Shown here: piece after piece, positions 30,908 through 64,000 of the stretch
How positions within the stretch are numbered: position 1 is the stretch's first letter
Layout: the number at the start of each line of letters is the position of its first letter
From: Psilocybe cubensis
Lineage: Eukaryota
Reading direction: 5' to 3'
NCBI GenBank assembly: GCA_017499595.2
Contig: CM038999.1
Span: 2,170,001 to 2,234,000, forward strand
DNA length: 64,000 nt
The notes under the pieces: generated by a model
What the model was told of the DNA's origin: nothing
Seen by the model: only the letters and a program-made list of their open reading frames with translations
The model's database searches: none
Translations under genes and position numbers: made by a program

Positions 30908-30913
30908 GCGCAC

Positions 30914-32428
30914 ATGTGGGAAGAGGCTGCTAACACAGAATTCAATCTGTTGCAGCACAATCAAACTTGGGAGCAAGTTGAGCTCCCTCCGGGTCAAAAG
31001 GCAATTGGCTGTGGTTGGGTCTTTAAAATCAAGCAAAATGCACATGGCAGTATAGAGTGCTACAAGGCTTGTATTGTTGCCAAGGGCTACAGTCAGCGCC
31101 CTGGCATTGATTACCATGAGGTCTTTGCTCCTACTTTCCGCCCTGCTACTTTCCGCTTGATTGTGGCTCTGGCCGCCATTGGAGACTTGAAGTTGCACTC
31201 TGTTGATATTACAGCTGCTTTCACTAAAGGTGACCTAGACGAGGAGATTTACATGTTACAACCTGAAGGATTTCACCAAGGTGGCCCTAACATAGTTTTG
31301 AAGCTTAAAAAGTCGCTCTATGGTCTTAAGCAGTCTGCACGTCAATGGAACCTCAAGTTGCATGAGGCATTGTCAGATATGGGGTTCAAGCGTATAGAAT
31401 CAGATCGCTCTGTCTACATCTATTCAGATGGAGATGTGAAGATTATTGTTCCCATTTACATTGATGACATCACCTTTGCCTCCAAATCGGACGCCGCCAT
31501 AGACAGAGCTGTTAAGCAGCTGGCTGCGCGTTTTGAACTCCGTGATCTGGGTCCTACACAGTATTTACTTGGTGTTGCCATTGAGCGAGATATGGCTGCT
31601 AAAACCATTTCCTTGCATCAGCGTCAGTATATCCTTGATATGCTTGATACATATGGCATGACTGATTCTAATCCGGTCAAAACACCTTTGGCTGTGGGCA
31701 CTGTTCTGTCCAAGGCAGATGGACCTCAGAATGGAGATGAGGTGGAATTTATGCGAAATGTTCCCTATCTCAATGCAGTTGGCTCCTTGCAGTATCTAGC
31801 CACCATGACCCGTCCTGACATTGCTTTTACTGTGTCCTATCTGGCACGCTTCAACTCCAATCCTGGGCCTAAGCATTGGGCTGCGGTTAAACATTTATTC
31901 CGCTACCTCAGAGGCACTCTGGATTACAAGTTGACTTATTCTGGCGCTGTGGGCCATGATAACTTTGTTACCTACACTGATGCTGCACATGGTGATTGTG
32001 TAGATACTGGACGCTCTACGAGTGGTTATTTGACCGTTCTAGCTGGAGGTGCTATTGGCTGGGCAAGCAAACTCCAAACTGTTGTAACTCTGTCTACTAC
32101 TGAGGCAGAGTACATTGCTGCGGTGGAGGCAGCCAAGGAAATTGTGTGGATGCGCAATATCCTTGAGGAGTTTGGCTACACAGTCACTGAGCCCTCTGTG
32201 CTGCATATGGACAACCAGTCATCTATCAGTGTTTCCAAGAATCCAGAGCACCATGGACGGATGAAGCACCTTGATTTGCGCTATTATTGGCTTAGGGATG
32301 CTGTTGGTGTTGGAAAGATTTCTCCTTCTTATATTCCTACTGATCAGCAAGCTGCTGATATTCTTACCAAACCCCTCTCACCTCCTAAAGTGGACTTTTG
32401 TAGAGATAAAATGGGTCTCAAACTTTAA
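30914..32428 (+). CDS. Copia RT-RNase H (3' half of the interrupted first unit)
   Basis: YIDD RT motif; RNase H YTDA, TEAEY, MDNQS, ADILTK. Confidence 0.85.
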   Translation: MWEEAANTEFNLLQHNQTWEQVELPPGQKAIGCGWVFKIKQNAHGSIECYKACIVAKGYSQRPGIDYHEVFAPTFRPATFRLIVALAAIGDLKLHSVDITAAFTKGDLDEEIYMLQPEGFHQGGPNIVLKLKKSLYGLKQSARQWNLKLHEALSDMGFKRIESDRSVYIYSDGDVKIIVPIYIDDITFASKSDAAIDRAVKQLAARFELRDLGPTQYLLGVAIERDMAAKTISLHQRQYILDMLDTYGMTDSNPVKTPLAVGTVLSKADGPQNGDEVEFMRNVPYLNAVGSLQYLATMTRPDIAFTVSYLARFNSNPGPKHWAAVKHLFRYLRGTLDYKLTYSGAVGHDNFVTYTDAAHGDCVDTGRSTSGYLTVLAGGAIGWASKLQTVVTLSTTEAEYIAAVEAAKEIVWMRNILEEFGYTVTEPSVLHMDNQSSISVSKNPEHHGRMKHLDLRYYWLRDAVGVGKISPSYIPTDQQAADILTKPLSPPKVDFCRDKMGLKL

Positions 32429-32491
32429 TCTTTCTTTCTCTGTTTTGCTTTATTTTTCTTTGTTCTGGAGACTTGTCAGAACAGGGGGGAG

Positions 32492-32930
32492 TGTTAAAAC
32501 TGCTCTCTATGTCTCCCTCACTTTGCTATCTTATCAGATTAGATTACTTTCTTCTTATCTTCATTTGCTCTCCAGACCATTCTAGACACATGATATTTAT
32601 CAGTCCATAGACTGGTCTGGACCGGACCAGAGTAGACCTAGGTAGACCAGAGTACTTGAGTCTACACAGTATATAGTCACTCTAGTTTACATCCTGAAGT
32701 CCCCAGTTACTCACTTCGGACTTCAGGTTAGTTTGTTAGCACTTTGCTCAATTCACTCAGTTACTCACTTCGGACTTCAGACGCTTCGTGCTCGCTTATC
32801 CCTGCGCCCTACGTTCTATAACTAGGTCGCCGAGTAGCTCACACTGCCCCGAGCTCGCCTGCTTCAACACTACGTTCTATAACTAGGTCGCCAAGTAGCT
32901 CACACTGTCTTGAGCTCGCCTGCTTCAACA
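32492..32930 (+). mobile_element. Copia LTR (439 bp including a 61-bp U5 duplication), preceded by PPT AGGGGGGAG and followed by PBS GGTTATGGGCCCC
   Basis: TGTTAA...TTCAACA termini. The PBS is of the copia/Ty5 (Hemivirus) type, complementary to the tRNAiMet anticodon arm. Confidence 0.95.
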
Positions 32931-33333
32931 GGTTATGGGCCCCGCGCTCTAAGCGCTCCAATTCCGTGTTTTGCGAACCAAGTTGCTTTCTGCATAGTTT
33001 TCACAAAACGGTCATTTTAGTCTTTTTTGCTTTTTATCCTCTACCAGGCCCGGCCATACATTGCCGCTGCTAGTAGGGTTGAACGAGCACGCCTTACGCG
33101 ACTTGTTAACCTCGGTTGAGCGGGCCCCCGTCGCCTAATCCCCGAGTTATTTCTAGTTAAAAGTAACCCTTTTAAATTAGGCTAGTTTAACTTCGTCTTT
33201 TCCACTTGCGTTCGCATCGCACCCCGAGCTCCGGGTAACGCCTAGTTCGTTTCCACACATCATTACACATTCCCACACATTACTACCAACACTCGTATCC
33301 ATCCGCTTACGCGTTCCTTCGCAATTCGCAATA

Positions 33334-34575
33334 ATGATTTCTGATCCCCAAATCACTCCATTGAACTCAACCAACTACAACACCTGGGCAGGCCAGATGA
33401 CCGCCTATCTCCAGTCTAAAGGGATATGGCGCATTGTCAGCGGTGCTAGAGCACAGCCAACGCTCTCAGACAAGCCTACTGCTCAGGAGGAAGCTTTGCT
33501 TGAAACCTACTTTGAGCAGAGAGACAAAGCATGTGGTTTGATCTATCTCAGTTTGGAGAATGATCAGATGGTTCATGTGGAAGCCATCAAGGATGATTCT
33601 ATCAAGATGTGGGATGCCCTCGCCGCTGTACATCAGCAAAAGCGCCCTGGCAACCGCTTTAATGCATATGATGATCTGTTCTCAATCCGAAAGGAGGAAG
33701 GTGAAAACCTTCAAACCCTGATCAATAGGGTTGAGCAAGCCATGTTGCTAATTCAGCAGCTTCGCCCTAAGGGGTTTGATCTGGCTAAGCTTGATAAAGA
33801 GCTTGCTTCGCTTGCTTTGGTCAGGGCACTCCCAGAAGAGTACAGTTCATTTGCATCCTCACTTCTCCTTTTGGACAAGTTGGACAAGGCTACAATTCAT
33901 CAAGCCTTTGTCACAGAGGACATACAGCGACGTCGCCGCGCTTCGGAGTTGCCTGCACTTGCCACCGCGTTCCAGACCGCTCCAGCCCCTTCTGCATCCA
34001 AGCCCAAGTGCGCATTTTGTGATATGACCAATCATGCAATGGACAAGTGTCACAAGTTCATTGCTGCGCAAAAGGATGCGAAGGAGCGTGTCAAAGCGGC
34101 TCGCAAAGGCAATAGAGCGCACAAGGCCTCAGAGGCATTTAGTGAGGAAAAAGAGTCCAAGGACATGGAATTTGCTGGAAATGCAAGTGCTCTTAATACC
34201 GATGTTCCCTCCGATGTTCCCTCTTCCATTTCACCCCAAACTAATGACGATTGGATTGCAGACACAGGGACGACTTCTCATATGACGCCCCATCGCAATT
34301 GGGTTAGAAATTACACCCCCCTTCGCATTCCAATCCGATTAGCAGATGAACGAGTTATTTATTCTGCAGGGGTGGGCACTGTGTTCTTTGAACCAGTTGT
34401 AAATGGAATAAAGTCAAGAGGCGTCGAGTTAACTAGAGTTTTACATGTACCAGATCTCCGAAACAATCTACTGTCTGTTCTATACCTCACAAAGCACAAA
34501 GGCTTCAAAATCACCATTGATGCTAATCTGGTCCTATCTCGCCCCCTACTCCTGAAGGCTATCGCTACTGGATAA
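33334..34575 (+). CDS. Copia Gag-protease (unit 1), ending in a short frameshift-derived tail
   Basis: LNSTNYNTW gag start, zinc knuckle CAFCDMTNHAMDKC, protease WIADTG(T)TSHM. Confidence 0.88.
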   Translation: MISDPQITPLNSTNYNTWAGQMTAYLQSKGIWRIVSGARAQPTLSDKPTAQEEALLETYFEQRDKACGLIYLSLENDQMVHVEAIKDDSIKMWDALAAVHQQKRPGNRFNAYDDLFSIRKEEGENLQTLINRVEQAMLLIQQLRPKGFDLAKLDKELASLALVRALPEEYSSFASSLLLLDKLDKATIHQAFVTEDIQRRRRASELPALATAFQTAPAPSASKPKCAFCDMTNHAMDKCHKFIAAQKDAKERVKAARKGNRAHKASEAFSEEKESKDMEFAGNASALNTDVPSDVPSSISPQTNDDWIADTGTTSHMTPHRNWVRNYTPLRIPIRLADERVIYSAGVGTVFFEPVVNGIKSRGVELTRVLHVPDLRNNLLSVLYLTKHKGFKITIDANLVLSRPLLLKAIATG

Positions 34576-34610
34576 CCTTTATTGATGACCATACAAAGAG
34601 TAGAGCTGCT

Positions 34611-37142
34611 GTGCTTCTTAAGCGCAAAAGCGATGCATTCAGTGCGTTTCAAACGTACAAAGCATGGGCTGAGAACAAATTAGGCTTTAAGATCAAAGCG
34701 CTGCAGGATGACAAAGCTGGTGAATACATGTCAAATGCTTTCATCAAATTCACTGACCAGTGTGGCATTGAGCGTCGTCATACAACGCGAAATCGCCCAC
34801 AACAAAACGGAGTTGCAGAGCGTGCAAATCGCACCATGGCAGAACATGTTACTTCCATGCTCAATGAGGCTCGTGTTCCACCTTTGTTTTGGGGTCGCTG
34901 TGTTGCAGCATACATGCATGTATGGAATCGTGTTCCTACAGCTCCTCTACCGGACAAGACTCTGTATGAAAGCTGGAACAAGCGCAAACCTGATGTTAGT
35001 CATTTGAGGGTTTGGGGTTGTCTTGCATATGTTTATGTTCAGGGAGATAAGCGCAAATCGTTGCAGCCTCATATGGAGAAGTGTATCTTTGTTGGGTATC
35101 ATACTGGGTACAAGGGCTGGAAGTTTTACAACCCACTCACCAAAAGGTTCATTATCTCTGAGAGAGCTGATTTCGACGAAAGGTGCTTCCCTGGGGTGTC
35201 CACTGGCCCTATGCCAAAGTTTGACCTTCTTCCCACTTCTTCTGCAAGTGCACCACCTCCCAATTCAGGGGGGGAATCTAATGGCTTCAATTTTGATGAT
35301 AATGAGGATGACTCTACTCCAAGTCCTGTCATTGAGCCAGAAGTGCCTATTGCGCCTCCTGAACAGCCAGCTGAACCGCCACAGCCTGAGGCCGTTCCTG
35401 CACCTCTTCCTAAGCCTGCACGCCGCCAGCGTGCTCCAGTTGATCCTGCAACGTTGAGACGCACTACTCGCGTTCCTAAGCAGCCTGGTGAATGGTGGAA
35501 GGTCTCACATGATCCTGAACCACCTGAAGCCAATGATCCTAGATTTGAAGAGGTGGAGTTTGCTGGGCTTGTTTCAAGCGCAGATCCGCGCACATTTAAA
35601 CAGGCAATGAAAGCGCCTGATGCGCACATGTGGGAAGAGGCTGCTAACACAGAATTCAATCTGTTGCAGCACAATCAAACTTGGGAGCAAGTTGAGCTCC
35701 CTCCGGGTCAAAAGGCAATTGGCTGTGGTTGGGTCTTTAAAATCAAGCAAAATGCACATGGCAGTATAGAGTGCTACAAGGCTCGTATTGTTGCCAAGGG
35801 CTACAGTCAGCGCCCTGGCATTGATTACCATGAGGTCTTTGCTCCTACTTTCCGCCCTGCTACTTTCCGCTTGATTGTGGCTCTGGCCGCCATTGGAGAC
35901 TTGAAGTTGCACTCTGTTGATATTACAGCTGCTTTCACTAAAGGTGACCTAGACGAGGAGATTTACATGTTACAACCTGAAGGATTTCACCAAGGTGGCC
36001 CTAACATAGTTTTGAAGCTTAAAAAGTCGCTCTATGGTCTTAAGCAGTCTGCACGTCAATGGAACCTCAAGTTGCATGAGGCATTGTCAGATATGGGGTT
36101 CAAGCGTATAGAATCAGATCGCTCTGTCTACATCTATTCAGATGGAGATGTGAAGATTATTGTTCCCATTTACATTGATGACATCACCTTTGCCTCCAAA
36201 TCGGACGCCGCCATAGACAGAGCTGTTAAGCAGCTGGCTGCGCGTTTTGAACTCCGTGATCTGGGTCCTACACAGTATTTACTTGGTGTTGCCATTGAGC
36301 GAGATATGGCTGCTAAAACCATTTCCTTGCATCAGCGTCAGTATATCCTTGATATGCTTGATACATATGGCATGACTGATTCTAATCCGGTCAAAACACC
36401 TTTGGCTGTGGGCACTGTTCTGTCCAAGGCAGATGGACCTCAGAATGGAGATGAGGTGGAATTTATGCGAAATGTTCCCTATCTCAATGCAGTTGGCTCC
36501 TTGCAGTATCTAGCCACCATGACCCGTCCTGACATTGCTTTTACTGTGTCCTATCTGGCACGCTTCAACTCCAATCCTGGGCCTAAGCATTGGGCTGCGG
36601 TTAAACATTTATTCCGCTACCTCAGAGGCACTCTGGATTACAAGTTGACTTATTCTGGCGCTGTGGGCCATGATAACTTTGTTACCTACACTGATGCTGC
36701 ACATGGTGATTGTGTAGATACTGGACGCTCTACGAGTGGTTATTTGACCGTTCTAGCTGGAGGTGCTATTGGCTGGGCAAGCAAACTCCAAACTGTTGTA
36801 ACTCTGTCTACTACTGAGGCAGAGTACATTGCTGCGGTGGAGGCAGCCAAGGAAATTGTGTGGATGCGCAATATCCTTGAGGAGTTTGGCTACACAGTCA
36901 CTGAGCCCTCTGTGCTGCATATGGACAACCAGTCATCTATCAGTGTTTCCAAGAATCCAGAGCACCATGGACGGATGAAGCACCTTGATTTGCGCTATTA
37001 TTGGCTTAGGGATGCTGTTGGTGTTGGAAAGATTTCTCCTTCTTATATTCCTACTGATCAGCAAGCTGCTGATATTCTTACCAAACCCCTCTCACCTCCT
37101 AAAGTGGACTTTTGTAGAGATAAAATGGGTCTCAAACTTTAA
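34611..37142 (+). CDS. Copia N-truncated integrase-RT-RNase H (unit 1); the frame is open from 34527 and the ORF-track start is not an ATG
   Basis: GPISPPTPEGYRYWITFIDD, LQDDKAGEY, QQNGVAERANR, YIDD and RNase H motifs. Confidence 0.85.
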   Translation: MLLKRKSDAFSAFQTYKAWAENKLGFKIKALQDDKAGEYMSNAFIKFTDQCGIERRHTTRNRPQQNGVAERANRTMAEHVTSMLNEARVPPLFWGRCVAAYMHVWNRVPTAPLPDKTLYESWNKRKPDVSHLRVWGCLAYVYVQGDKRKSLQPHMEKCIFVGYHTGYKGWKFYNPLTKRFIISERADFDERCFPGVSTGPMPKFDLLPTSSASAPPPNSGGESNGFNFDDNEDDSTPSPVIEPEVPIAPPEQPAEPPQPEAVPAPLPKPARRQRAPVDPATLRRTTRVPKQPGEWWKVSHDPEPPEANDPRFEEVEFAGLVSSADPRTFKQAMKAPDAHMWEEAANTEFNLLQHNQTWEQVELPPGQKAIGCGWVFKIKQNAHGSIECYKARIVAKGYSQRPGIDYHEVFAPTFRPATFRLIVALAAIGDLKLHSVDITAAFTKGDLDEEIYMLQPEGFHQGGPNIVLKLKKSLYGLKQSARQWNLKLHEALSDMGFKRIESDRSVYIYSDGDVKIIVPIYIDDITFASKSDAAIDRAVKQLAARFELRDLGPTQYLLGVAIERDMAAKTISLHQRQYILDMLDTYGMTDSNPVKTPLAVGTVLSKADGPQNGDEVEFMRNVPYLNAVGSLQYLATMTRPDIAFTVSYLARFNSNPGPKHWAAVKHLFRYLRGTLDYKLTYSGAVGHDNFVTYTDAAHGDCVDTGRSTSGYLTVLAGGAIGWASKLQTVVTLSTTEAEYIAAVEAAKEIVWMRNILEEFGYTVTEPSVLHMDNQSSISVSKNPEHHGRMKHLDLRYYWLRDAVGVGKISPSYIPTDQQAADILTKPLSPPKVDFCRDKMGLKL

Positions 37143-37205
37143 TCTTTCTTTCTCTGTTTTGCTTTATTTTTCTTTGTTCTGGAGACTTGTCAGAACAGGG
37201 GGGAG

Positions 37206-37644
37206 TGTTAAAACTGCTCTCTATGTCTCCCTCACTTTGCTATCTTATCAGATTAGATTACTTTCTTCTTATCTTCATTTGCTCTCCAGACCATTCTAGA
37301 CACATGATATTTATCAGTCCATAGACTGGTCTGGACCGGACCAGAGTAGACCTAGGTAGACCAGAGTACTTGAGTCTACACAGTATATAGTCACTCTAGT
37401 TTACATCCTGAAGTCCCCAGTTACTCACTTCGGACTTCAGGTTAGTTTGTTAGCACTTTGCTCAATTCACTCAGTTACTCACTTCGGACTTCAGACGCTT
37501 CGTGCTCGCTTATCCCTGCGCCCTACGTTCTATAACTAGGTCGCCGAGTAGCTCACACTGCCCCGAGCTCGCCTGCTTCAACACTACGTTCTATAACTAG
37601 GTCGCCAAGTAGCTCACACTGTCTTGAGCTCGCCTGCTTCAACA
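37206..37644 (+). mobile_element. Copia LTR (array)
   Basis: Copy of 32492-32930, with PPT and PBS. Confidence 0.95.
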
Positions 37645-38047
37645 GGTTATGGGCCCCGCGCTCTAAGCGCTCCAATTCCGTGTTTTGCGAACCAAGTTGC
37701 TTTCTGCATAGTTTTCACAAAACGGTCATTTTAGTCTTTTTTGCTTTTTATCCTCTACCAGGCCCGGCCATACATTGCCGCTGCTAGTAGGGTTGAACGA
37801 GCACGCCTTACGCGACTTGTTAACCTCGGTTGAGCGGGCCCCCGTCGCCTAATCCCCGAGTTATTTCTAGTTAAAAGTAACCCTTTTAAATTAGGCTAGT
37901 TTAACTTCGTCTTTTCCACTTGCGTTCGCATCGCACCCCGAGCTCCGGGTAACGCCTAGTTCGTTTCCACACATCATTACACATTCCCACACATTACTAC
38001 CAACACTCGTATCCATCCGCTTACGCGTTCCTTCGCAATTCGCAATA

Positions 38048-39289
38048 ATGATTTCTGATCCCCAAATCACTCCATTGAACTCAACCAACTACAACACCTG
38101 GGCAGGCCAGATGACCGCCTATCTCCAGTCTAAAGGGATATGGCGCATTGTCAGCGGTGCTAGAGCACAGCCAACGCTCTCAGACAAGCCTACTGCTCAG
38201 GAGGAAGCTTTGCTTGAAACCTACTTTGAGCAGAGAGACAAAGCATGTGGTTTGATCTATCTCAGTTTGGAGAATGATCAGATGGTTCATGTGGAAGCCA
38301 TCAAGGATGATTCTATCAAGATGTGGGATGCCCTCGCCGCTGTACATCAGCAAAAGCGCCCTGGCAACCGCTTTAATGCATATGATGATCTGTTCTCAAT
38401 CCGAAAGGAGGAAGGTGAAAACCTTCAAACCCTGATCAATAGGGTTGAGCAAGCCATGTTGCTAATTCAGCAGCTTCGCCCTAAGGGGTTTGATCTGGCT
38501 AAGCTTGATAAAGAGCTTGCTTCGCTTGCTTTGGTCAGGGCACTCCCAGAAGAGTACAGTTCATTTGCATCCTCACTTCTCCTTTTGGACAAGTTGGACA
38601 AGGCTACAATTCATCAAGCCTTTGTCACAGAGGACATACAGCGACGTCGCCGCGCTTCGGAGTTGCCTGCACTTGCCACCGCGTTCCAGACCGCTCCAGC
38701 CCCTTCTGCATCCAAGCCCAAGTGCGCATTTTGTGATATGACCAATCATGCAATGGACAAGTGTCACAAGTTCATTGCTGCGCAAAAGGATGCGAAGGAG
38801 CGTGTCAAAGCGGCTCGCAAAGGCAATAGAGCGCACAAGGCCTCAGAGGCATTTAGTGAGGAAAAAGAGTCCAAGGACATGGAATTTGCTGGAAATGCAA
38901 GTGCTCTTAATACCGATGTTCCCTCCGATGTTCCCTCTTCCATTTCACCCCAAACTAATGACGATTGGATTGCAGACACAGGGGCGACTTCTCATATGAC
39001 GCCCCATCGCAATTGGGTTAGAAATTACACCCCCCTTCGCATTCCAATCCGATTAGCAGATGAACGAGTTATTTATTCTGCAGGGGTGGGCACTGTGTTC
39101 TTTGAACCAGTTGTAAATGGAATAAAGTCAAGAGGCGTCGAGTTAACTAGAGTTTTACATGTACCAGATCTCCGAAACAATCTACTGTCTGTTCTATACC
39201 TCACAAAGCACAAAGGCTTCAAAATCACCATTGATGCTAATCTGGTCCTATCTCGCCCCCTACTCCTGAAGGCTATCGCTACTGGATAA
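38048..39289 (+). CDS. Copia Gag-protease (unit 2)
   Basis: 413 aa; CCHC knuckle; ADTGATSHM. Confidence 0.88.
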   Translation: MISDPQITPLNSTNYNTWAGQMTAYLQSKGIWRIVSGARAQPTLSDKPTAQEEALLETYFEQRDKACGLIYLSLENDQMVHVEAIKDDSIKMWDALAAVHQQKRPGNRFNAYDDLFSIRKEEGENLQTLINRVEQAMLLIQQLRPKGFDLAKLDKELASLALVRALPEEYSSFASSLLLLDKLDKATIHQAFVTEDIQRRRRASELPALATAFQTAPAPSASKPKCAFCDMTNHAMDKCHKFIAAQKDAKERVKAARKGNRAHKASEAFSEEKESKDMEFAGNASALNTDVPSDVPSSISPQTNDDWIADTGATSHMTPHRNWVRNYTPLRIPIRLADERVIYSAGVGTVFFEPVVNGIKSRGVELTRVLHVPDLRNNLLSVLYLTKHKGFKITIDANLVLSRPLLLKAIATG

Positions 39290-39324
39290 CCTTTATTGAT
39301 GACCATACAAAGAGTAGAGCTGCT

Positions 39325-41856: not shown

Positions 41857-41919
41857 TCTTTCTTTCTCTGTTTTGCTTTATTTTTCTTTGTTCTGGAGAC
41901 TTGTCAGAACAGGGGGGAG

Positions 41920-42358
41920 TGTTAAAACTGCTCTCTATGTCTCCCTCACTTTGCTATCTTATCAGATTAGATTACTTTCTTCTTATCTTCATTTGCTCTC
42001 CAGACCATTCTAGACACATGATATTTATCAGTCCATAGACTGGTCTGGACCGGACCAGAGTAGACCTAGGTAGACCAGAGTACTTGAGTCTACACAGTAT
42101 ATAGTCACTCTAGTTTACATCCTGAAGTCCCCAGTTACTCACTTCGGACTTCAGGTTAGTTTGTTAGCACTTTGCTCAATTCACTCAGTTACTCACTTCG
42201 GACTTCAGACGCTTCGTGCTCGCTTATCCCTGCGCCCTACGTTCTATAACTAGGTCGCCGAGTAGCTCACACTGCCCCGAGCTCGCCTGCTTCAACACTA
42301 CGTTCTATAACTAGGTCGCCAAGTAGCTCACACTGTCTTGAGCTCGCCTGCTTCAACA
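41920..42358 (+). mobile_element. Copia LTR (array)
   Basis: Copy of 32492-32930. Confidence 0.95.
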
Positions 42359-42761
42359 GGTTATGGGCCCCGCGCTCTAAGCGCTCCAATTCCGTGTTTT
42401 GCGAACCAAGTTGCTTTCTGCATAGTTTTCACAAAACGGTCATTTTAGTCTTTTTTGCTTTTTATCCTCTACCAGGCCCGGCCATACATTGCCGCTGCTA
42501 GTAGGGTTGAACGAGCACGCCTTACGCGACTTGTTAACCTCGGTTGAGCGGGCCCCCGTCGCCTAATCCCCGAGTTATTTCTAGTTAAAAGTAACCCTTT
42601 TAAATTAGGCTAGTTTAACTTCGTCTTTTCCACTTGCGTTCGCATCGCACCCCGAGCTCCGGGTAACGCCTAGTTCGTTTCCACACATCATTACACATTC
42701 CCACACATTACTACCAACACTCGTATCCATCCGCTTACGCGTTCCTTCGCAATTCGCAATA

Positions 42762-44003: not shown

Positions 44004-44038
44004 CCTTTATTGATGACCATACAAAGAGTAGAGCTGCT

Positions 44039-46570: not shown

Positions 46571-46633
46571 TCTTTCTTTCTCTGTTTTGCTTTATTTTTC
46601 TTTGTTCTGGAGACTTGTCAGAACAGGGGGGAG

Positions 46634-48717: not shown

Positions 48718-48752
48718 CCTTTATTGATGACCATACAAAGAGTAGAGCTGCT

Positions 48753-51284: not shown

Positions 51285-51347
51285 TCTTTCTTTCTCTGTT
51301 TTGCTTTATTTTTCTTTGTTCTGGAGACTTGTCAGAACAGGGGGGAG

Positions 51348-53431: not shown

Positions 53432-53466
53432 CCTTTATTGATGACCATACAAAGAGTAGAGCTGCT

Positions 53467-55998: not shown

Positions 55999-56061
55999 TC
56001 TTTCTTTCTCTGTTTTGCTTTATTTTTCTTTGTTCTGGAGACTTGTCAGAACAGGGGGGAG

Positions 56062-56500
56062 TGTTAAAACTGCTCTCTATGTCTCCCTCACTTTGCTATC
56101 TTATCAGATTAGATTACTTTCTTCTTATCTTCATTTGCTCTCCAGACCATTCTAGACACATGATATTTATCAGTCCATAGACTGGTCTGGACCGGACCAG
56201 AGTAGACCTAGGTAGACCAGAGTACTTGAGTCTACACAGTATATAGTCACTCTAGTTTACATCCTGAAGTCCCCAGTTACTCACTTCGGACTTCAGGTTA
56301 GTTTGTTAGCACTTTGCTCAATTCACTCAGTTACTCACTTCGGACTTCAGACGCTTCGTGCTCGCTTATCCCTGCGCCCTACGTTCTATAACTAGGTCGC
56401 CGAGTAGCTCACACTGCCCCGAGCTCGCCTGCTTCAACACTACGTTCTATAACTAGGTCGCCAAGTAGCTCACACTGTCTTGAGCTCGCCTGCTTCAACA
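56062..56500 (+). mobile_element. Copia LTR (array)
   Basis: Copy of 32492-32930. Confidence 0.95.
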
Positions 56501-56903
56501 GGTTATGGGCCCCGCGCTCTAAGCGCTCCAATTCCGTGTTTTGCGAACCAAGTTGCTTTCTGCATAGTTTTCACAAAACGGTCATTTTAGTCTTTTTTGC
56601 TTTTTATCCTCTACCAGGCCCGGCCATACATTGCCGCTGCTAGTAGGGTTGAACGAGCACGCCTTACGCGACTTGTTAACCTCGGTTGAGCGGGCCCCCG
56701 TCGCCTAATCCCCGAGTTATTTCTAGTTAAAAGTAACCCTTTTAAATTAGGCTAGTTTAACTTCGTCTTTTCCACTTGCGTTCGCATCGCACCCCGAGCT
56801 CCGGGTAACGCCTAGTTCGTTTCCACACATCATTACACATTCCCACACATTACTACCAACACTCGTATCCATCCGCTTACGCGTTCCTTCGCAATTCGCA
56901 ATA

Positions 56904-58145
56904 ATGATTTCTGATCCCCAAATCACTCCATTGAACTCAACCAACTACAACACCTGGGCAGGCCAGATGACCGCCTATCTCCAGTCTAAAGGGATATGGC
57001 GCATTGTCAGCGGTGCTAGAGCACAGCCAACGCTCTCAGACAAGCCTACTGCTCAGGAGGAAGCTTTGCTTGAAACCTACTTTGAGCAGAGAGACAAAGC
57101 ATGTGGTTTGATCTATCTCAGTTTGGAGAATGATCAGATGGTTCATGTGGAAGCCATCAAGGATGATTCTATCAAGATGTGGGATGCCCTCGCCGCTGTA
57201 CATCAGCAAAAGCGCCCTGGCAACCGCTTTAATGCATATGATGATCTGTTCTCAATCCGAAAGGAGGAAGGTGAAAACCTTCAAACCCTGATCAATAGGG
57301 TTGAGCAAGCCATGTTGCTAATTCAGCAGCTTCGCCCTAAGGGGTTTGATCTGGCTAAGCTTGATAAAGAGCTTGCTTCGCTTGCTTTGGTCAGGGCACT
57401 CCCAGAAGAGTACAGTTCATTTGCATCCTCACTTCTCCTTTTGGACAAGTTGGACAAGGCTACAATTCATCAAGCCTTTGTCACAGAGGACATACAGCGA
57501 CGTCGCCGCGCTTCGGAGTTGCCTGCACTTGCCACCGCGTTCCAGACCGCTCCAGCCCCTTCTGCATCCAAGCCCAAGTGCGCATTTTGTGATATGACCA
57601 ATCATGCAATGGACAAGTGTCACAAGTTCATTGCTGCGCAAAAGGATGCGAAGGAGCGTGTCAAAGCGGCTCGCAAAGGCAATAGAGCGCACAAGGCCTC
57701 AGAGGCATTTAGTGAGGAAAAAGAGTCCAAGGACATGGAATTTGCTGGAAATGCAAGTGCTCTTAATACCGATGTTCCCTCCGATGTTCCCTCTTCCATT
57801 TCACCCCAAACTAATGACGATTGGATTGCAGACACAGGGGCGACTTCTCATATGACGCCCCATCGCAATTGGGTTAGAAATTACACCCCCCTTCGCATTC
57901 CAATCCGATTAGCAGATGAACGAGTTATTTATTCTGCAGGGGTGGGCACTGTGTTCTTTGAACCAGTTGTAAATGGAATAAAGTCAAGAGGCGTCGAGTT
58001 AACTAGAGTTTTACATGTACCAGATCTCCGAAACAATCTACTGTCTGTTCTATACCTCACAAAGCACAAAGGCTTCAAAATCACCATTGATGCTAATCTG
58101 GTCCTATCTCGCCCCCTACTCCTGAAGGCTATCGCTACTGGATAA
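56904..58145 (+). CDS. Copia Gag-protease (unit 6)
   Basis: Same 413-aa frame. Confidence 0.88.
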   Translation: MISDPQITPLNSTNYNTWAGQMTAYLQSKGIWRIVSGARAQPTLSDKPTAQEEALLETYFEQRDKACGLIYLSLENDQMVHVEAIKDDSIKMWDALAAVHQQKRPGNRFNAYDDLFSIRKEEGENLQTLINRVEQAMLLIQQLRPKGFDLAKLDKELASLALVRALPEEYSSFASSLLLLDKLDKATIHQAFVTEDIQRRRRASELPALATAFQTAPAPSASKPKCAFCDMTNHAMDKCHKFIAAQKDAKERVKAARKGNRAHKASEAFSEEKESKDMEFAGNASALNTDVPSDVPSSISPQTNDDWIADTGATSHMTPHRNWVRNYTPLRIPIRLADERVIYSAGVGTVFFEPVVNGIKSRGVELTRVLHVPDLRNNLLSVLYLTKHKGFKITIDANLVLSRPLLLKAIATG

Positions 58146-58180
58146 CCTTTATTGATGACCATACAAAGAGTAGAGCTGCT

Positions 58181-60712
58181 GTGCTTCTTAAGCGCAAAAG
58201 CGATGCATTCAGTGCGTTTCAAACGTACAAAGCATGGGCTGAGAACAAATTAGGCTTTAAGATCAAAGCGCTGCAGGATGACAAAGCTGGTGAATACATG
58301 TCAAATGCTTTCATCAAATTCACTGACCAGTGTGGCATTGAGCGTCGTCATACAACGCGAAATCGCCCACAACAAAACGGAGTTGCAGAGCGTGCAAATC
58401 GCACCATGGCAGAACATGTTACTTCCATGCTCAATGAGGCTCGTGTTCCACCTTTGTTTTGGGGTCGCTGTGTTGCAGCATACATGCATGTATGGAATCG
58501 TGTTCCTACAGCTCCTCTACCGGACAAGACTCTGTATGAAAGCTGGAACAAGCGCAAACCTGATGTTAGTCATTTGAGGGTTTGGGGTTGTCTTGCATAT
58601 GTTTATGTTCAGGGAGATAAGCGCAAATCGTTGCAGCCTCATATGGAGAAGTGTATCTTTGTTGGGTATCATACTGGGTACAAGGGCTGGAAGTTTTACA
58701 ACCCACTCACCAAAAGGTTCATTATCTCTGAGAGAGCTGATTTCGACGAAAGGTGCTTCCCTGGGGTGTCCACTGGCCCTATGCCAAAGTTTGACCTTCT
58801 TCCCACTTCTTCTGCAAGTGCACCACCTCCCAATTCAGGGGGGGAATCTAATGGCTTCAATTTTGATGATAATGAGGATGACTCTACTCCAAGTCCTGTC
58901 ATTGAGCCAGAAGTGCCTATTGCGCCTCCTGAACAGCCAGCTGAACCGCCACAGCCTGAGGCCGTTCCTGCACCTCTTCCTAAGCCTGCACGCCGCCAGC
59001 GTGCTCCAGTTGATCCTGCAACGTTGAGACGCACTACTCGCGTTCCTAAGCAGCCTGGTGAATGGTGGAAGGTCTCACATGATCCTGAACCACCTGAAGC
59101 CAATGATCCTAGATTTGAAGAGGTGGAGTTTGCTGGGCTTGTTTCAAGCGCAGATCCGCGCACATTTAAACAGGCAATGAAAGCGCCTGATGCGCACATG
59201 TGGGAAGAGGCTGCTAACACAGAATTCAATCTGTTGCAGCACAATCAAACTTGGGAGCAAGTTGAGCTCCCTCCGGGTCAAAAGGCAATTGGCTGTGGTT
59301 GGGTCTTTAAAATCAAGCAAAATGCACATGGCAGTATAGAGTGCTACAAGGCTCGTATTGTTGCCAAGGGCTACAGTCAGCGCCCTGGCATTGATTACCA
59401 TGAGGTCTTTGCTCCTACTTTCCGCCCTGCTACTTTCCGCTTGATTGTGGCTCTGGCCGCCATTGGAGACTTGAAGTTGCACTCTGTTGATATTACAGCT
59501 GCTTTCACTAAAGGTGACCTAGACGAGGAGATTTACATGTTACAACCTGAAGGATTTCACCAAGGTGGCCCTAACATAGTTTTGAAGCTTAAAAAGTCGC
59601 TCTATGGTCTTAAGCAGTCTGCACGTCAATGGAACCTCAAGTTGCATGAGGCATTGTCAGATATGGGGTTCAAGCGTATAGAATCAGATCGCTCTGTCTA
59701 CATCTATTCAGATGGAGATGTGAAGATTATTGTTCCCATTTACATTGATGACATCACCTTTGCCTCCAAATCGGACGCCGCCATAGACAGAGCTGTTAAG
59801 CAGCTGGCTGCGCGTTTTGAACTCCGTGATCTGGGTCCTACACAGTATTTACTTGGTGTTGCCATTGAGCGAGATATGGCTGCTAAAACCATTTCCTTGC
59901 ATCAGCGTCAGTATATCCTTGATATGCTTGATACATATGGCATGACTGATTCTAATCCGGTCAAAACACCTTTGGCTGTGGGCACTGTTCTGTCCAAGGC
60001 AGATGGACCTCAGAATGGAGATGAGGTGGAATTTATGCGAAATGTTCCCTATCTCAATGCAGTTGGCTCCTTGCAGTATCTAGCCACCATGACCCGTCCT
60101 GACATTGCTTTTACTGTGTCCTATCTGGCACGCTTCAACTCCAATCCTGGGCCTAAGCATTGGGCTGCGGTTAAACATTTATTCCGCTACCTCAGAGGCA
60201 CTCTGGATTACAAGTTGACTTATTCTGGCGCTGTGGGCCATGATAACTTTGTTACCTACACTGATGCTGCACATGGTGATTGTGTAGATACTGGACGCTC
60301 TACGAGTGGTTATTTGACCGTTCTAGCTGGAGGTGCTATTGGCTGGGCAAGCAAACTCCAAACTGTTGTAACTCTGTCTACTACTGAGGCAGAGTACATT
60401 GCTGCGGTGGAGGCAGCCAAGGAAATTGTGTGGATGCGCAATATCCTTGAGGAGTTTGGCTACACAGTCACTGAGCCCTCTGTGCTGCATATGGACAACC
60501 AGTCATCTATCAGTGTTTCCAAGAATCCAGAGCACCATGGACGGATGAAGCACCTTGATTTGCGCTATTATTGGCTTAGGGATGCTGTTGGTGTTGGAAA
60601 GATTTCTCCTTCTTATATTCCTACTGATCAGCAAGCTGCTGATATTCTTACCAAACCCCTCTCACCTCCTAAAGTGGACTTTTGTAGAGATAAAATGGGT
60701 CTCAAACTTTAA
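58181..60712 (+). CDS. Copia truncated INT-RT-RNase H (unit 6)
   Basis: Same 843-aa frame. Confidence 0.85.
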   Translation: MLLKRKSDAFSAFQTYKAWAENKLGFKIKALQDDKAGEYMSNAFIKFTDQCGIERRHTTRNRPQQNGVAERANRTMAEHVTSMLNEARVPPLFWGRCVAAYMHVWNRVPTAPLPDKTLYESWNKRKPDVSHLRVWGCLAYVYVQGDKRKSLQPHMEKCIFVGYHTGYKGWKFYNPLTKRFIISERADFDERCFPGVSTGPMPKFDLLPTSSASAPPPNSGGESNGFNFDDNEDDSTPSPVIEPEVPIAPPEQPAEPPQPEAVPAPLPKPARRQRAPVDPATLRRTTRVPKQPGEWWKVSHDPEPPEANDPRFEEVEFAGLVSSADPRTFKQAMKAPDAHMWEEAANTEFNLLQHNQTWEQVELPPGQKAIGCGWVFKIKQNAHGSIECYKARIVAKGYSQRPGIDYHEVFAPTFRPATFRLIVALAAIGDLKLHSVDITAAFTKGDLDEEIYMLQPEGFHQGGPNIVLKLKKSLYGLKQSARQWNLKLHEALSDMGFKRIESDRSVYIYSDGDVKIIVPIYIDDITFASKSDAAIDRAVKQLAARFELRDLGPTQYLLGVAIERDMAAKTISLHQRQYILDMLDTYGMTDSNPVKTPLAVGTVLSKADGPQNGDEVEFMRNVPYLNAVGSLQYLATMTRPDIAFTVSYLARFNSNPGPKHWAAVKHLFRYLRGTLDYKLTYSGAVGHDNFVTYTDAAHGDCVDTGRSTSGYLTVLAGGAIGWASKLQTVVTLSTTEAEYIAAVEAAKEIVWMRNILEEFGYTVTEPSVLHMDNQSSISVSKNPEHHGRMKHLDLRYYWLRDAVGVGKISPSYIPTDQQAADILTKPLSPPKVDFCRDKMGLKL

Positions 60713-60775
60713 TCTTTCTTTCTCTGTTTTGCTTTATTTTTCTTTGTTCTGGAGACTTGTCAGAACAGGGGGGAG

Positions 60776-61214
60776 TGTTAAAACTGCTCTCTATGTCTCC
60801 CTCACTTTGCTATCTTATCAGATTAGATTACTTTCTTCTTATCTTCATTTGCTCTCCAGACCATTCTAGACACATGATATTTATCAGTCCATAGACTGGT
60901 CTGGACCGGACCAGAGTAGACCTAGGTAGACCAGAGTACTTGAGTCTACACAGTATATAGTCACTCTAGTTTACATCCTGAAGTCCCCAGTTACTCACTT
61001 CGGACTTCAGGTTAGTTTGTTAGCACTTTGCTCAATTCACTCAGTTACTCACTTCGGACTTCAGACGCTTCGTGCTCGCTTATCCCTGCGCCCTACGTTC
61101 TATAACTAGGTCGCCGAGTAGCTCACACTGCCCCGAGCTCGCCTGCTTCAACACTACGTTCTATAACTAGGTCGCCAAGTAGCTCACACTGTCTTGAGCT
61201 CGCCTGCTTCAACA
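60776..61214 (+). mobile_element. Copia LTR (array)
   Basis: Copy of 32492-32930. Confidence 0.95.
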
Positions 61215-61617
61215 GGTTATGGGCCCCGCGCTCTAAGCGCTCCAATTCCGTGTTTTGCGAACCAAGTTGCTTTCTGCATAGTTTTCACAAAACGGTCATT
61301 TTAGTCTTTTTTGCTTTTTATCCTCTACCAGGCCCGGCCATACATTGCCGCTGCTAGTAGGGTTGAACGAGCACGCCTTACGCGACTTGTTAACCTCGGT
61401 TGAGCGGGCCCCCGTCGCCTAATCCCCGAGTTATTTCTAGTTAAAAGTAACCCTTTTAAATTAGGCTAGTTTAACTTCGTCTTTTCCACTTGCGTTCGCA
61501 TCGCACCCCGAGCTCCGGGTAACGCCTAGTTCGTTTCCACACATCATTACACATTCCCACACATTACTACCAACACTCGTATCCATCCGCTTACGCGTTC
61601 CTTCGCAATTCGCAATA

Positions 61618-62859
61618 ATGATTTCTGATCCCCAAATCACTCCATTGAACTCAACCAACTACAACACCTGGGCAGGCCAGATGACCGCCTATCTCCAGTC
61701 TAAAGGGATATGGCGCATTGTCAGCGGTGCTAGAGCACAGCCAACGCTCTCAGACAAGCCTACTGCTCAGGAGGAAGCTTTGCTTGAAACCTACTTTGAG
61801 CAGAGAGACAAAGCATGTGGTTTGATCTATCTCAGTTTGGAGAATGATCAGATGGTTCATGTGGAAGCCATCAAGGATGATTCTATCAAGATGTGGGATG
61901 CCCTCGCCGCTGTACATCAGCAAAAGCGCCCTGGCAACCGCTTTAATGCATATGATGATCTGTTCTCAATCCGAAAGGAGGAAGGTGAAAACCTTCAAAC
62001 CCTGATCAATAGGGTTGAGCAAGCCATGTTGCTAATTCAGCAGCTTCGCCCTAAGGGGTTTGATCTGGCTAAGCTTGATAAAGAGCTTGCTTCGCTTGCT
62101 TTGGTCAGGGCACTCCCAGAAGAGTACAGTTCATTTGCATCCTCACTTCTCCTTTTGGACAAGTTGGACAAGGCTACAATTCATCAAGCCTTTGTCACAG
62201 AGGACATACAGCGACGTCGCCGCGCTTCGGAGTTGCCTGCACTTGCCACCGCGTTCCAGACCGCTCCAGCCCCTTCTGCATCCAAGCCCAAGTGCGCATT
62301 TTGTGATATGACCAATCATGCAATGGACAAGTGTCACAAGTTCATTGCTGCGCAAAAGGATGCGAAGGAGCGTGTCAAAGCGGCTCGCAAAGGCAATAGA
62401 GCGCACAAGGCCTCAGAGGCATTTAGTGAGGAAAAAGAGTCCAAGGACATGGAATTTGCTGGAAATGCAAGTGCTCTTAATACCGATGTTCCCTCCGATG
62501 TTCCCTCTTCCATTTCACCCCAAACTAATGACGATTGGATTGCAGACACAGGGGCGACTTCTCATATGACGCCCCATCGCAATTGGGTTAGAAATTACAC
62601 CCCCCTTCGCATTCCAATCCGATTAGCAGATGAACGAGTTATTTATTCTGCAGGGGTGGGCACTGTGTTCTTTGAACCAGTTGTAAATGGAATAAAGTCA
62701 AGAGGCGTCGAGTTAACTAGAGTTTTACATGTACCAGATCTCCGAAACAATCTACTGTCTGTTCTATACCTCACAAAGCACAAAGGCTTCAAAATCACCA
62801 TTGATGCTAATCTGGTCCTATCTCGCCCCCTACTCCTGAAGGCTATCGCTACTGGATAA
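61618..62859 (+). CDS. Copia Gag-protease (unit 7)
   Basis: Same 413-aa frame. Confidence 0.88.
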   Translation: MISDPQITPLNSTNYNTWAGQMTAYLQSKGIWRIVSGARAQPTLSDKPTAQEEALLETYFEQRDKACGLIYLSLENDQMVHVEAIKDDSIKMWDALAAVHQQKRPGNRFNAYDDLFSIRKEEGENLQTLINRVEQAMLLIQQLRPKGFDLAKLDKELASLALVRALPEEYSSFASSLLLLDKLDKATIHQAFVTEDIQRRRRASELPALATAFQTAPAPSASKPKCAFCDMTNHAMDKCHKFIAAQKDAKERVKAARKGNRAHKASEAFSEEKESKDMEFAGNASALNTDVPSDVPSSISPQTNDDWIADTGATSHMTPHRNWVRNYTPLRIPIRLADERVIYSAGVGTVFFEPVVNGIKSRGVELTRVLHVPDLRNNLLSVLYLTKHKGFKITIDANLVLSRPLLLKAIATG

Positions 62860-62894
62860 CCTTTATTGATGACCATACAAAGAGTAGAGCTGCT

Positions 62895-64000
62895 GTGCTT
62901 CTTAAGCGCAAAAGCGATGCATTCAGTGCGTTTCAAACGTACAAAGCATGGGCTGAGAACAAATTAGGCTTTAAGATCAAAGCGCTGCAGGATGACAAAG
63001 CTGGTGAATACATGTCAAATGCTTTCATCAAATTCACTGACCAGTGTGGCATTGAGCGTCGTCATACAACGCGAAATCGCCCACAACAAAACGGAGTTGC
63101 AGAGCGTGCAAATCGCACCATGGCAGAACATGTTACTTCCATGCTCAATGAGGCTCGTGTTCCACCTTTGTTTTGGGGTCGCTGTGTTGCAGCATACATG
63201 CATGTATGGAATCGTGTTCCTACAGCTCCTCTACCGGACAAGACTCTGTATGAAAGCTGGAACAAGCGCAAACCTGATGTTAGTCATTTGAGGGTTTGGG
63301 GTTGTCTTGCATATGTTTATGTTCAGGGAGATAAGCGCAAATCGTTGCAGCCTCATATGGAGAAGTGTATCTTTGTTGGGTATCATACTGGGTACAAGGG
63401 CTGGAAGTTTTACAACCCACTCACCAAAAGGTTCATTATCTCTGAGAGAGCTGATTTCGACGAAAGGTGCTTCCCTGGGGTGTCCACTGGCCCTATGCCA
63501 AAGTTTGACCTTCTTCCCACTTCTTCTGCAAGTGCACCACCTCCCAATTCAGGGGGGGAATCTAATGGCTTCAATTTTGATGATAATGAGGATGACTCTA
63601 CTCCAAGTCCTGTCATTGAGCCAGAAGTGCCTATTGCGCCTCCTGAACAGCCAGCTGAACCGCCACAGCCTGAGGCCGTTCCTGCACCTCTTCCTAAGCC
63701 TGCACGCCGCCAGCGTGCTCCAGTTGATCCTGCAACGTTGAGACGCACTACTCGCGTTCCTAAGCAGCCTGGTGAATGGTGGAAGGTCTCACATGATCCT
63801 GAACCACCTGAAGCCAATGATCCTAGATTTGAAGAGGTGGAGTTTGCTGGGCTTGTTTCAAGCGCAGATCCGCGCACATTTAAACAGGCAATGAAAGCGC
63901 CTGATGCGCACATGTGGGAAGAGGCTGCTAACACAGAATTCAATCTGTTGCAGCACAATCAAACTTGGGAGCAAGTTGAGCTCCCTCCGGGTCAAAAGGC
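62895..64000 (+). CDS. Copia truncated INT-RT (unit 7), cut by the window end
   Basis: Same sequence as 34611 onward, offset by 6 x 4714. Confidence 0.83.
   Translation, partial: MLLKRKSDAFSAFQTYKAWAENKLGFKIKALQDDKAGEYMSNAFIKFTDQCGIERRHTTRNRPQQNGVAERANRTMAEHVTSMLNEARVPPLFWGRCVAAYMHVWNRVPTAPLPDKTLYESWNKRKPDVSHLRVWGCLAYVYVQGDKRKSLQPHMEKCIFVGYHTGYKGWKFYNPLTKRFIISERADFDERCFPGVSTGPMPKFDLLPTSSASAPPPNSGGESNGFNFDDNEDDSTPSPVIEPEVPIAPPEQPAEPPQPEAVPAPLPKPARRQRAPVDPATLRRTTRVPKQPGEWWKVSHDPEPPEANDPRFEEVEFAGLVSSADPRTFKQAMKAPDAHMWEEAANTEFNLLQHNQTWEQVELPPGQK

Follow-up and report, generated by a model that had tools for sequence, protein, structure and literature searches.

Retrotransposons arranged in tandem with shared LTRs are an already known kind of structure, described in plants, flies and yeasts. 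Ty1 and Ty5 also reportedly form tandems. Most instances of a dispersed retrotransposon becoming a satellite are too ancient for the first steps to be visible, and the process is still an open question. Unequal exchange and circles are named as routes to tandem transposons in the portions consulted of two reports (PMC5932611, PMC11899658), and the accessible part of a fission yeast study describes integrase-independent insertion at existing elements that gives rise to single-LTR tandems (PMC11042837). In fungi, a survey of 325 genomes reports, in the part available, no satellite-type centromere architecture in the 49 fungi it covered (bioRxiv 10.64898/2026.09.17.752431). Our literature search found no shared-LTR tandem in mushrooms as long as the one described here; the supplements of that bioRxiv atlas might list fungal tandems. 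Nothing decisive came from the consulted text of PMC13721899, PMC8865532 and bioRxiv 10.1101/2022.12.06.519325.

The window (the whole 64,000-nucleotide stretch of Psilocybe cubensis contig CM038999.1 that was analyzed) carries a forward-strand tandem array of one Copia unit at 30908..64000. Self-comparison and BLAST agree on an exact period of 4714 bp in the assembled sequence, from 30908 to the window end. Among lags of 20-15000, 4714 bp and its multiples gave an identity of 1.0 to three decimals and the next-best lag 0.28, while BLAST aligned 30908-59286 to 35622-64000 at 99.993% (2 mismatches, 0 gaps). The window holds 7 full units and 95 bp, with unit starts at 30908, 35622, 40336, 45050, 49764, 54478, 59192 and 63906, the last being a partial unit that leaves the window. 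Periodicity has its left limit at exactly 30908, in mid-RT and not at an LTR. Only 2 columns vary among the 7 units, both private to unit 1, which has T at 31070 where the other 6 have C, and A at 34270 where the other 6 have G. Units 2-7 are mutually identical over 28 kb. Neither a TSD nor host DNA was found between units in the 7 full units, where PPT, LTR and PBS are contiguous. The first-pass annotation had described about seven near-identical head-to-tail units of this exact period, running past the window with no TSD or host DNA between them, and these observations bear it out. Its term "macrosatellite" applies only provided that the array is truly as long as assembled.

At the joint between units, a polypurine tract seen on sequence inspection (32483..32491, forward strand, repeated every 4714 bp) abuts a 378-bp Copia LTR with TG...CA and 4-bp inverted ends (32492..32869, forward). 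Among the joints listed for other strains, loose read ends fall at 32492 and 32869, the latter being where most of these reads end the LTR. The LTR is followed by a second copy of its own last 61 bp (32870..32930, forward) and then by the primer binding site GGTTATGGGCCC (32931..32942, forward), which we take to be a half-tRNA-iMet site of the hemivirus type of Copia. A motif of this type was present at 30 of 79 related loci; no tRNA gene was found in the 64-kb window, and none of the 79 loci had two complete LTRs with clear flanks from which to read a TSD length. Internal regions alternate with one LTR, as in other shared-LTR tandems, with the extra 61 bp as a variation. The earlier claim of one shared LTR per joint stands for the single 378-bp LTR and fails for the second LTR end.

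The two 61-mers differ at 4 of 61 positions, all transitions, with T or A in the second copy at all four. The two LTR ends produced by one reverse transcription are expected to be identical, so these are unlike ends from a single event. Finding 4 changes in 61 bp is improbable at 0.8% divergence (p 0.002) but not at 3% (p 0.11), which tempers this argument. The second copy is likely the remnant of an older LTR hit by a younger Copia insertion. A clean one-LTR circle or a plain LTR-LTR exchange was rejected as the sole origin, as either leaves the diverged 61 bp unexplained unless the parent LTR already had it.

Sequencing reads from other strains show related structures. Four of the 23 listed runs were mapped (X21, X22, X1 and X6); runs X14-X18 and X23, with small word shares, were left out. 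Two marks define the array haplotype, the deletion joint described below and A at 34805. Among the 40 variant rows listed of about 605, the non-array letter at 34805 was carried by 647/647 and 656/658 reads in X21 and by 553/553 and 580/580 in X22. The haplotype was seen in none of the 4 mapped runs, which marks them as other strains, without bearing on array copy number. The family in two of these runs comprises about 30 undeleted copies, mostly with two LTRs, and the unit stands about 1% from the family in other strains (best word share 0.76; 12 differences in 1092 bp to a contig from X1).

One of the 15 joints listed, out of 165, connects 32809 within the LTR to the beginning of the LTR at 32492 with the opening hexamer of the 61-mer between, and has 23 reads each in X21 and X22, about the single-copy level. 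It may be the left end of a nested Copia insertion, an orientation that is itself a reading. This joint implies a 6-bp target duplication and has one extra C that a clean duplication leaves unexplained, points that count against this reading. Other Copia-in-Copia joints are among those listed, such as 34991 to 32491 with 71 and 61 reads. The 35621-to-30908 joint (639 reads in X21, among the joints listed) was rejected as evidence for tandem copies because it is the normal continuity of RT.

The unit is a Ty1/Copia copy by its Gag-PR-INT-RT-RH order, its Copia-type RT and its TG...CA LTR between PPT and PBS. Pfam places Gag, protease, an integrase remnant, an SH3-like domain and RT in succession (Retrotran_gag_2, Pol_BBD, rve and, with E 1e-66, RVT_2), with RNase H motifs after RT, recovering the domain order first annotated; identity to fungal Copia polyproteins is 52-69% among the top hits. 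The description as a whole element does not hold. At 34530 about 116-118 codons are missing relative to 4 of 5 relatives compared, and the frame changes relative to all 5. Comparison with relatives and with reads of other strains places the deletion joint at 34525..34535 (forward), where about 350 bp were lost with the GAG-pre-integrase region, the zinc finger and the conserved HxD that immediately precedes the integrase core; the conserved H, C and HxD columns of the relatives are absent from the unit. Pfam and a frame scan give a Gag-protease frame of 413 codons (33334..34575, forward) with a short out-of-frame tail behind the deletion. The integrase remnant, RT and RNase H are orphaned in a frame of 871 codons from stop to stop (34530..37142, forward; Pfam). 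This open frame, whose first Met is codon 68, is out of frame with Gag-PR owing to the deletion and carries substitutions at otherwise invariant columns. Both the continuous Gag-Pol frame and the complete integrase of an autonomous Copia are missing. Judged from these frames, the unit is defective and is predicted to be unable to make its own RT or integrase. Self-driven retrotransposition was rejected as the amplifier, since pol is out of frame. No function is implied for the array.

The left border has a history of its own. The RT-RNase H half of unit 1 (30908..32428, forward; BLAST, Pfam) begins with the copy of the GCGC target site that immediately follows Gypsy LTR X3 (29278..30907, forward), a 1630-bp LTR flanked by CCGG / GCGC that is both the left border of the array and the right end of an inversion. 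Gypsy LTR X2 (17099..18728, reverse), 99.2% identical to X3 and flanked by GCGC / CCGG, forms the left end. The swapped flanks show that the border of the array underwent ectopic recombination. One Gypsy element, itself split at CCGG, has its 5' LTR and gag-PR part at 12614..17098 (forward, Pfam) and its inverted remainder, RT-RH-INT with an internally deleted LTR, at 23018..29277 (reverse); reads of other strains join 29277 to sequence left of 17095 among the joints listed. Between these pieces lie the displaced 5' half of a Copia cut at GCGC (copy A, 18729..21417, reverse), an older Copia fragment (copy B, 21418..22644, forward) and a Copia LTR with PBS (22645..23017, forward), the latter two about 96% identical to the unit by BLAST and of the same family. 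Unit 1 was cut by the insertion of a Gypsy LTR that later took part in the inversion. On the left the array ends at this cut, and its right end lies beyond the window.

Copy A is 97% identical to the unit overall, with 1 difference in a 671-bp patch (the equivalents of 34214-34884, shared deletion included), whereas the remaining 2024 bp hold 79 (Poisson p about 1e-10). This near-identical patch indicates sequence exchange between the unit type and its neighbor. To the right of X3, the RT half belongs to a younger type, with 18 versus 4 polarised transitions against the old copy B, and its reading as the mere other half of copy A was rejected for that reason.

The defective unit, together with a joint that is no plain shared LTR, changes the likely seed of the array. 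We think that very recent homologous recombination by the host probably amplified an already dead Copia, as a nested dimer or a circle, in a heterochromatic transposon nest. First, a young Copia would have inserted 61 bp before the end of another copy's 5' LTR, creating a direct-orientation dimer of the form internal-LTR-61 bp-internal. Second, recombination between both internal regions of the dimer would have fixed a unit of 4714 bp, either by out-of-register exchange or by excision of a circle. Third, a small number of unequal sister exchanges, or one rolling-circle or break-induced replication event, would have multiplied the unit and overwritten the older RT half up to X3; gene conversion may also have reached copy A. 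Retrotransposition by the unit itself is not needed. The identity of units 2-7, the 2 changes in 33 kb confined to unit 1 and the roughly 1% distance from the family argue that one mutated copy was amplified. This supports the initial view, in which recombination made a very young array out of one Copia unit and left no TSDs. Unequal exchange and a rolling circle are indistinguishable from the window sequence.

Both variants fall in unit 1, which the flank anchors, and units 2-7 match perfectly; an assembler consensus would give the same pattern, which counts against our proposal. The true locus could be a short tandem of 2-3 units in which the assembler repeated a consensus unit, a possibility we regard as fairly unlikely. 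Zero variation over 28 kb would fit it, as would the lack of the haplotype in any independent run (0 of 18 matching runs above a word share of 0.76, among 23 runs listed). One-unit circles with terminal overlaps make up 9 of 79 related metagenome contigs, so assemblers can make such joins, some of which are perhaps real circles. Against this, long-read assemblers generally tend to collapse identical repeats and not to inflate them. The unit is a private deleted haplotype and not the majority family type of other strains, and the unit-1 variants could arise only with a minimum of two distinct 5' halves and two PPT-LTR-PBS joints. The contig that carries the window's own gene is 4.33 Mb long, so the assembly was probably built from long reads able to span the 439-bp joint.

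A route through reverse transcription appears improbable. Here, defective RNA would have been packaged in trans by intact copies, and either its cDNA, a circle of the one-LTR or autointegration kind, or a cDNA multimer would have recombined into the RT half beside the Gypsy LTR, with integrase-less Tf1 as precedent. PBS, PPT and LTR of the unit are intact, and the roughly 30 undeleted copies in other strains are possible enzyme donors. The single-LTR tandems of fission yeast arise at pre-existing elements without integrase, in the part of that study consulted (PMC11042837). An LTR end joined inside another LTR is the geometry of an autointegration circle too, and the younger type of the RT half right of X3 also agrees with cDNA entering there. 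However, a single cDNA would have given identical LTR ends in place of the 4 differences in 61 bp, and repeated independent capture is expected to leave mixed, mostly undeleted units. Helpers would also bring integrase along with RT, so recombination does not follow from a dead integrase.

The initial suggestion that the array may be the core of a regional centromere has circumstantial support. A centromeric location is plausible, at somewhat under even chances. Genes end near 3000, the other 61 kb holds only transposon-type domains in the frames scanned, and CpG observed/expected drops from 0.86-1.09 to 0.06-0.41 within 3-12 kb. This part of the window is gene-free, rich in transposons and poor in CpG and GC, as a centromere requires, though such features are not specific to one. 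Putative centromeres of Agrocybe chaxingu are rich in LINE and Copia (PMC11433599), and those of Ganoderma leucocontextum each have 1-8 copies of a Copia LTR, according to the part of the report available (PMC10817607). On the other side, a haplotype missing from all four mapped runs cannot be conserved centromere sequence, and rice tandems show no centromere bias in the portion consulted (PMC11899658). In Sparassis, three members of a 58%-identical relative share one 3.7-Mb contig with a spacing of about 400 accession numbers, a weak counterpoint that assumes that accession order follows position. That a real array of tens of kb lies in this chromosome's centromere with CENP-A, as a strain-specific macrosatellite at birth made from a centromere-seeking Copia, is doubtful. 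If true, it would contradict the recent suggestion that fungi are unable to produce or maintain centromeric satellite arrays, with its seed, a self-insertion into the LTR end, readable in every joint. That the array expanded because it provides a regional centromere with its CENP-A core, as a newborn satellite of retrotransposon origin, is highly improbable on the same evidence.

What would set the array apart is a confirmed length together with a centromeric position; if shorter than assembled or not centromeric, it is merely another dead-element tandem. The tandems of rice, Arabidopsis, almond and cotton, as described in the consulted part of one study (PMC11899658), resemble it in that internal regions alternate with single LTRs, identity is very high, internal TSDs are lacking and strains differ in them. 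The loci detailed in that study combine two internal regions with three LTRs, belong mostly to Gypsy and end in LTRs with a TSD, whereas here a fungal Copia forms 7 or more units as assembled, with a left end inside RT and 61 extra bp per joint. In Drosophila (PMC5932611, in the part available), nested or double insertions also give a dimer that host recombination expands, leaving a trace of the target in each joint; LTR tandems there come mostly from LTR-LTR exchange, R1, Bari1 and hobo make up the long arrays, and the target proposed here is the element's own LTR end. Fission yeast Tf1/Tf2 tandems, in the consulted part of that source (PMC11042837), are likewise fungal, with a single LTR between units and recombination into an older related copy that yields hybrids. 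They come from Rad52-dependent, integrase-independent cDNA insertion and are mostly two-element and RT-competent, whereas the present unit has no expressible RT and is far more amplified as assembled. GlCEN427 of Ganoderma leucocontextum, likened to the unit by description only, is also an Agaricomycete Copia, whose LTR is about 400 bp long and which has tens of genomic copies; in the available text it forms separate two-LTR elements and solo LTRs, not arrays, and its centromere call comes from Hi-C (PMC10817607). Whole-element tandem duplication by host recombination is common to centromeric transposon-derived repeats, for which the part consulted of one preprint gives examples from plants and animals, the array here being fungal (bioRxiv 10.64898/2026.09.17.752431). 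The array seems to be missing from some strains, so its birth, size change and loss could be traced in crosses. Compared with cases too old to show how they began, this locus still has a legible unit, a likely nested-insertion seed, a cut first copy and a conversion tract.

The Copia array runs head to tail from 30908 to the end of the window with an exact period of 4714 bp, giving seven complete units and a partial eighth of 95 bp. When the window was compared with itself at lags of 20 to 15000, a score of 1.0 was reached solely at 4714 and multiples of it, and the next score was 0.28. Two columns vary across the units (31070 and 34270), with the odd letter in unit 1 both times; units 2-7 are identical. 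Neither host DNA nor a target-site duplication was found between units. The array is real in the assembled sequence, confirming the first-pass annotation of about seven near-identical tandem units joined with no host DNA or target-site duplication. It is unlikely that the assembly has over-expanded an array of three units or fewer. That both variants lie in unit 1, the one anchored by unique flank, would fit such an error, as would 28 kb without variation, which resembles an assembler consensus. Nine of 79 related metagenome contigs also close as one-unit circles, and such joins are possible products of a short-read graph. However, the unit is a private haplotype and not the majority type of its family, the two unit-1 variants need at least two joints, and the window's own CAP-Gly protein lies on a 4.33-Mb contig, suggesting reads far longer than the joint. 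The nine circles (L001, L016, L024, L025, L040, L041, L048, L053 and L065; 4.5-5.4 kb with terminal overlaps) are loops that the assembler closed through the LTR or else genuine one-LTR circles.

By its domain content, the unit is classed as a Ty1/Copia element. Pfam places Gag, protease, an integrase remnant, an SH3-like domain and RVT_2 in that order, with RNase H motifs downstream, and the top fungal Copia proteins are 52-69% identical to it. It is not the whole element first described, as 116-118 codons are absent at 34530 relative to four of the five relatives compared, and the frame changes there relative to all five, the fifth aligning less cleanly at the joint. The deleted portion includes the GAG-pre-integrase region, the His and Cys columns of the zinc finger, and the almost invariant HxD immediately ahead of the integrase core. 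Going by Ty1 and HIV integrase, the Asp of this HxD would be the first of the catalytic residues. The Gag-PR frame has 413 codons from 33334 and ends shortly past the deletion joint; the pol frame has 871 codons, with its first Met at codon 68. Copia Pol is made as a single polyprotein with Gag, so a unit with this broken frame makes neither integrase nor reverse transcriptase and is dead. The unit departs from 23 relatives at 20 columns, each at least 90% conserved among those relatives, although some of these departures may be family traits. At three RT positions, a C or G kept in copy B (an older fragment of the same family, 21418-22644, plus strand) is changed in the array. Together, these departures and the unchanged positions of copy B imply that a single, already mutated copy was amplified. 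The Gag-PR linker of the unit also carries a 12-bp tandem duplication (34199-34223), absent from copy A, the displaced 5′ half of a cut Copia, and from one contig of the read run X1.

At the joint between units, the PPT (32483-32491) precedes a 378-bp LTR (32492-32869), which is followed by a second copy of the LTR's final 61 bp (32870-32930) and then the PBS. The earlier reading of one LTR per unit holds for the single 378-bp LTR, but every joint carries this extra, diverged LTR end. The second copy differs from the first by four transitions, every one toward T or A. Two read runs of other strains commonly end the LTR at 32869, where loose ends number 462 and 351; reads skipping the 61 bp number 114 and 102. 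Among the joints listed, 23 reads in each of these runs pass from 32809 to the start of the LTR by way of the 61-mer's opening hexamer. In our reading, this joint marks the insertion of one Copia into the LTR of another at the 61-mer point, at about single-copy level; its orientation, an extra C and the implied 6-bp duplication are provisional. Such an insertion would give the order internal-LTR-61 bp-PBS-internal, identical to the array joint. Autointegration or a deleted two-LTR circle would produce the same geometry, but the two LTR ends should then be identical, and here 4 of 61 positions differ. The LTR also contains a 23-bp direct repeat (32706-32782, recurring every 4714 bp) downstream of a TATA-like motif. 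It flanks a stretch that opens with GTTAGT and closes with CAG. The layout resembles a 54-nt intron in which the end of the upstream exon recurs at the 3′ end.

At its left end, the array begins within RT at GCGC, immediately after Gypsy LTR X3 (29278-30907; flanks CCGG and GCGC). Gypsy LTR X2 (17099-18728, minus strand; flanks GCGC and CCGG) is 99.2% identical to X3. The flanks are swapped between the two insertions, which implies an inversion between them, and 441 and 350 reads of other strains link 29277 to Gypsy sequence left of 17095, confirming the other half of the swap. From the swapped target duplications and these reads, the inversion spans 13.8 kb (17099-30907). Copy A (18729-21417, minus strand), to which the 5′ half of the Copia cut at this border has been displaced, is 97% identical to the unit. 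Over 489 bp compared, copies A and B have 15 differences in common against the array. Around the deletion, which is common to both, copy A differs from the unit once in 671 bp, in contrast to 79 differences in the other 2024 bp (p ~1e-10), and at 34805 it also carries the private A of the array. To the right of X3, the RT half is of the younger type: in the comparison with B, transitions that look derived number 18 on the side of B and 4 on that of the array, and other-strain contigs match parts of this half with 0 differences in 501 bp and 0 in 361 bp, while one contig has 7 in 358 bp. The patch in copy A and the younger RT half imply that array-type and older copies exchanged sequence to the left as well as the right of the Gypsy LTR, a sign of homologous recombination being active at the locus.

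Several other features mark this region. At 18729-21913, two old Copia copies are arranged as an inverted pair (496 bp, 97%), both with the same stop codon and 5-bp insertion. At the 21417/21418 joint, an LTR end runs directly into sequence from the middle of integrase. The 1.63-kb Gypsy LTR occurs at 12614-14244, 17099-18728, 23018-23886 and 29278-30907, and opens with TA, not TG. At its insertions in the window, the flanks are 4-mers made up of G and C alone (GCGC, CCGG, GCGG), suggesting a Gypsy target preference.

The array haplotype is absent from the four runs whose reads were aligned to 23891-35621, and is hence strain-specific. The array's A at 34805 appeared in at most 2 of 1305 reads in run X21 and in 0 of 1133 in run X22. 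Among the 23 runs listed, the best contains 0.76 of the unit's words. Internal-region depth (mean of 11 bins, the LTR bin left out) is about 1120 in X21 and 1040 in X22, or roughly 24-34 family copies if the genome is 40-50 Mb and every read is fungal (single-copy depth 33-43). In both runs, LTR depth is about 1.8 times internal depth, as expected of mostly two-LTR elements. Loose reads at the deletion joint (941 and 872 in X21, 909 and 805 in X22) indicate that their copies are undeleted.

The array probably originated by nested self-insertion. A Copia inserting into its own kind would give a dimer, exchange between the internal regions of the dimer would set a unit of 4714 bp, and the very recent multiplication of this unit would have come from unequal exchange or rolling-circle replication. 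The first-pass view of a very young array made by recombination is supported by 2 changes in 33 kb across the array, compared to 13 in 1630 bp between X2 and X3, and by the exchange traces at the left border. A cDNA route with helper elements is possible but quite unlikely. It draws on the tandems outlined as arising in fission yeast (PMC11042837), but leaves both the diverged 61 bp and the uniform deleted units unexplained.

The array lies beyond a sharp border. A CAP-Gly gene and ribosomal protein S18 (Pfam) occupy the first 2.6 kb, and the CAP-Gly protein, whose nearest named relatives belong to Galerina, Flammula and Cyclocybe (59-62%), identifies the host as an agaric mushroom. The two genes (1-2600) adjoin in other agarics too, where two fused gene models carry both Pfam families (relatives' proteins P0136 and P0180). 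Gene content ends near 3000, with GC dropping from 46-50% to 31-40% and the CpG observed/expected ratio going down from 0.86-1.09 to 0.06-0.41 over 3-12 kb. A CCCTAAT repeat run (3601-3680, 4.9 copies) near the border is telomere-like or a DNA transposon end. The rest of the window is a transposon nest of Tc1/mariner, a putative decayed LINE, a Gypsy whose LTRs measure 1.63 kb, older Copia pieces, and the array itself. The Tc1/mariner (5384-6993) is bounded by terminal inverted repeats of 214 bp (92.5%), its transposase frame is almost open, and it apparently interrupts an LTR-like stretch starting near 4963. The decayed frame at 9560-10894 matches RNase H weakly (E 0.004, under the Pfam cut-off) and, judging by its motifs, is presumably the tail of a LINE. 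An AT-rich element at 11129-12449 has long inverted repeats (93-95%) and is MITE- or foldback-like.

The first-pass suggestion of a centromere core is tenable for the locus, with the balance tipping slightly against it. The gene-transposon border and CpG drop favor a centromere, as do the Copia-rich putative centromeres outlined for Agrocybe chaxingu (PMC11433599) and Ganoderma leucocontextum (PMC10817607); LINEs are also noted as marking putative centromeres in Agrocybe (PMC11433599). Against this, the array haplotype is absent from other strains, rice tandems are summarized as lacking a centromere bias (PMC11899658), and Sparassis relatives are possibly dispersed, a weak hint. That the array itself is a newborn CENP-A-bearing macrosatellite in a fungus is quite unlikely, and that centromere function drove its expansion is very unlikely. 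For the centromere question, the CAP-Gly/RPS18 pair offers possible synteny markers.

In a literature covered mostly by titles and abstract openings, with subscription journals thinly represented, we found no mushroom for which an array of many whole Copia units has been described. A 2026 preprint, as far as its accessible text goes, records satellite architecture in 0 of 49 fungi and suggests fungi might not be able to form or retain satellite arrays (10.64898/2026.09.17.752431). Shared-LTR tandems are described in outline as common and polymorphic in plants (PMC11899658), frequent in Drosophila (PMC5932611) and also occurring in fission yeast (PMC11042837), and kangaroo centromeric arrays are cited in PMC11899658. 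The Psilocybe array is a shared-LTR tandem of this known kind, with an unusually readable record of its birth.
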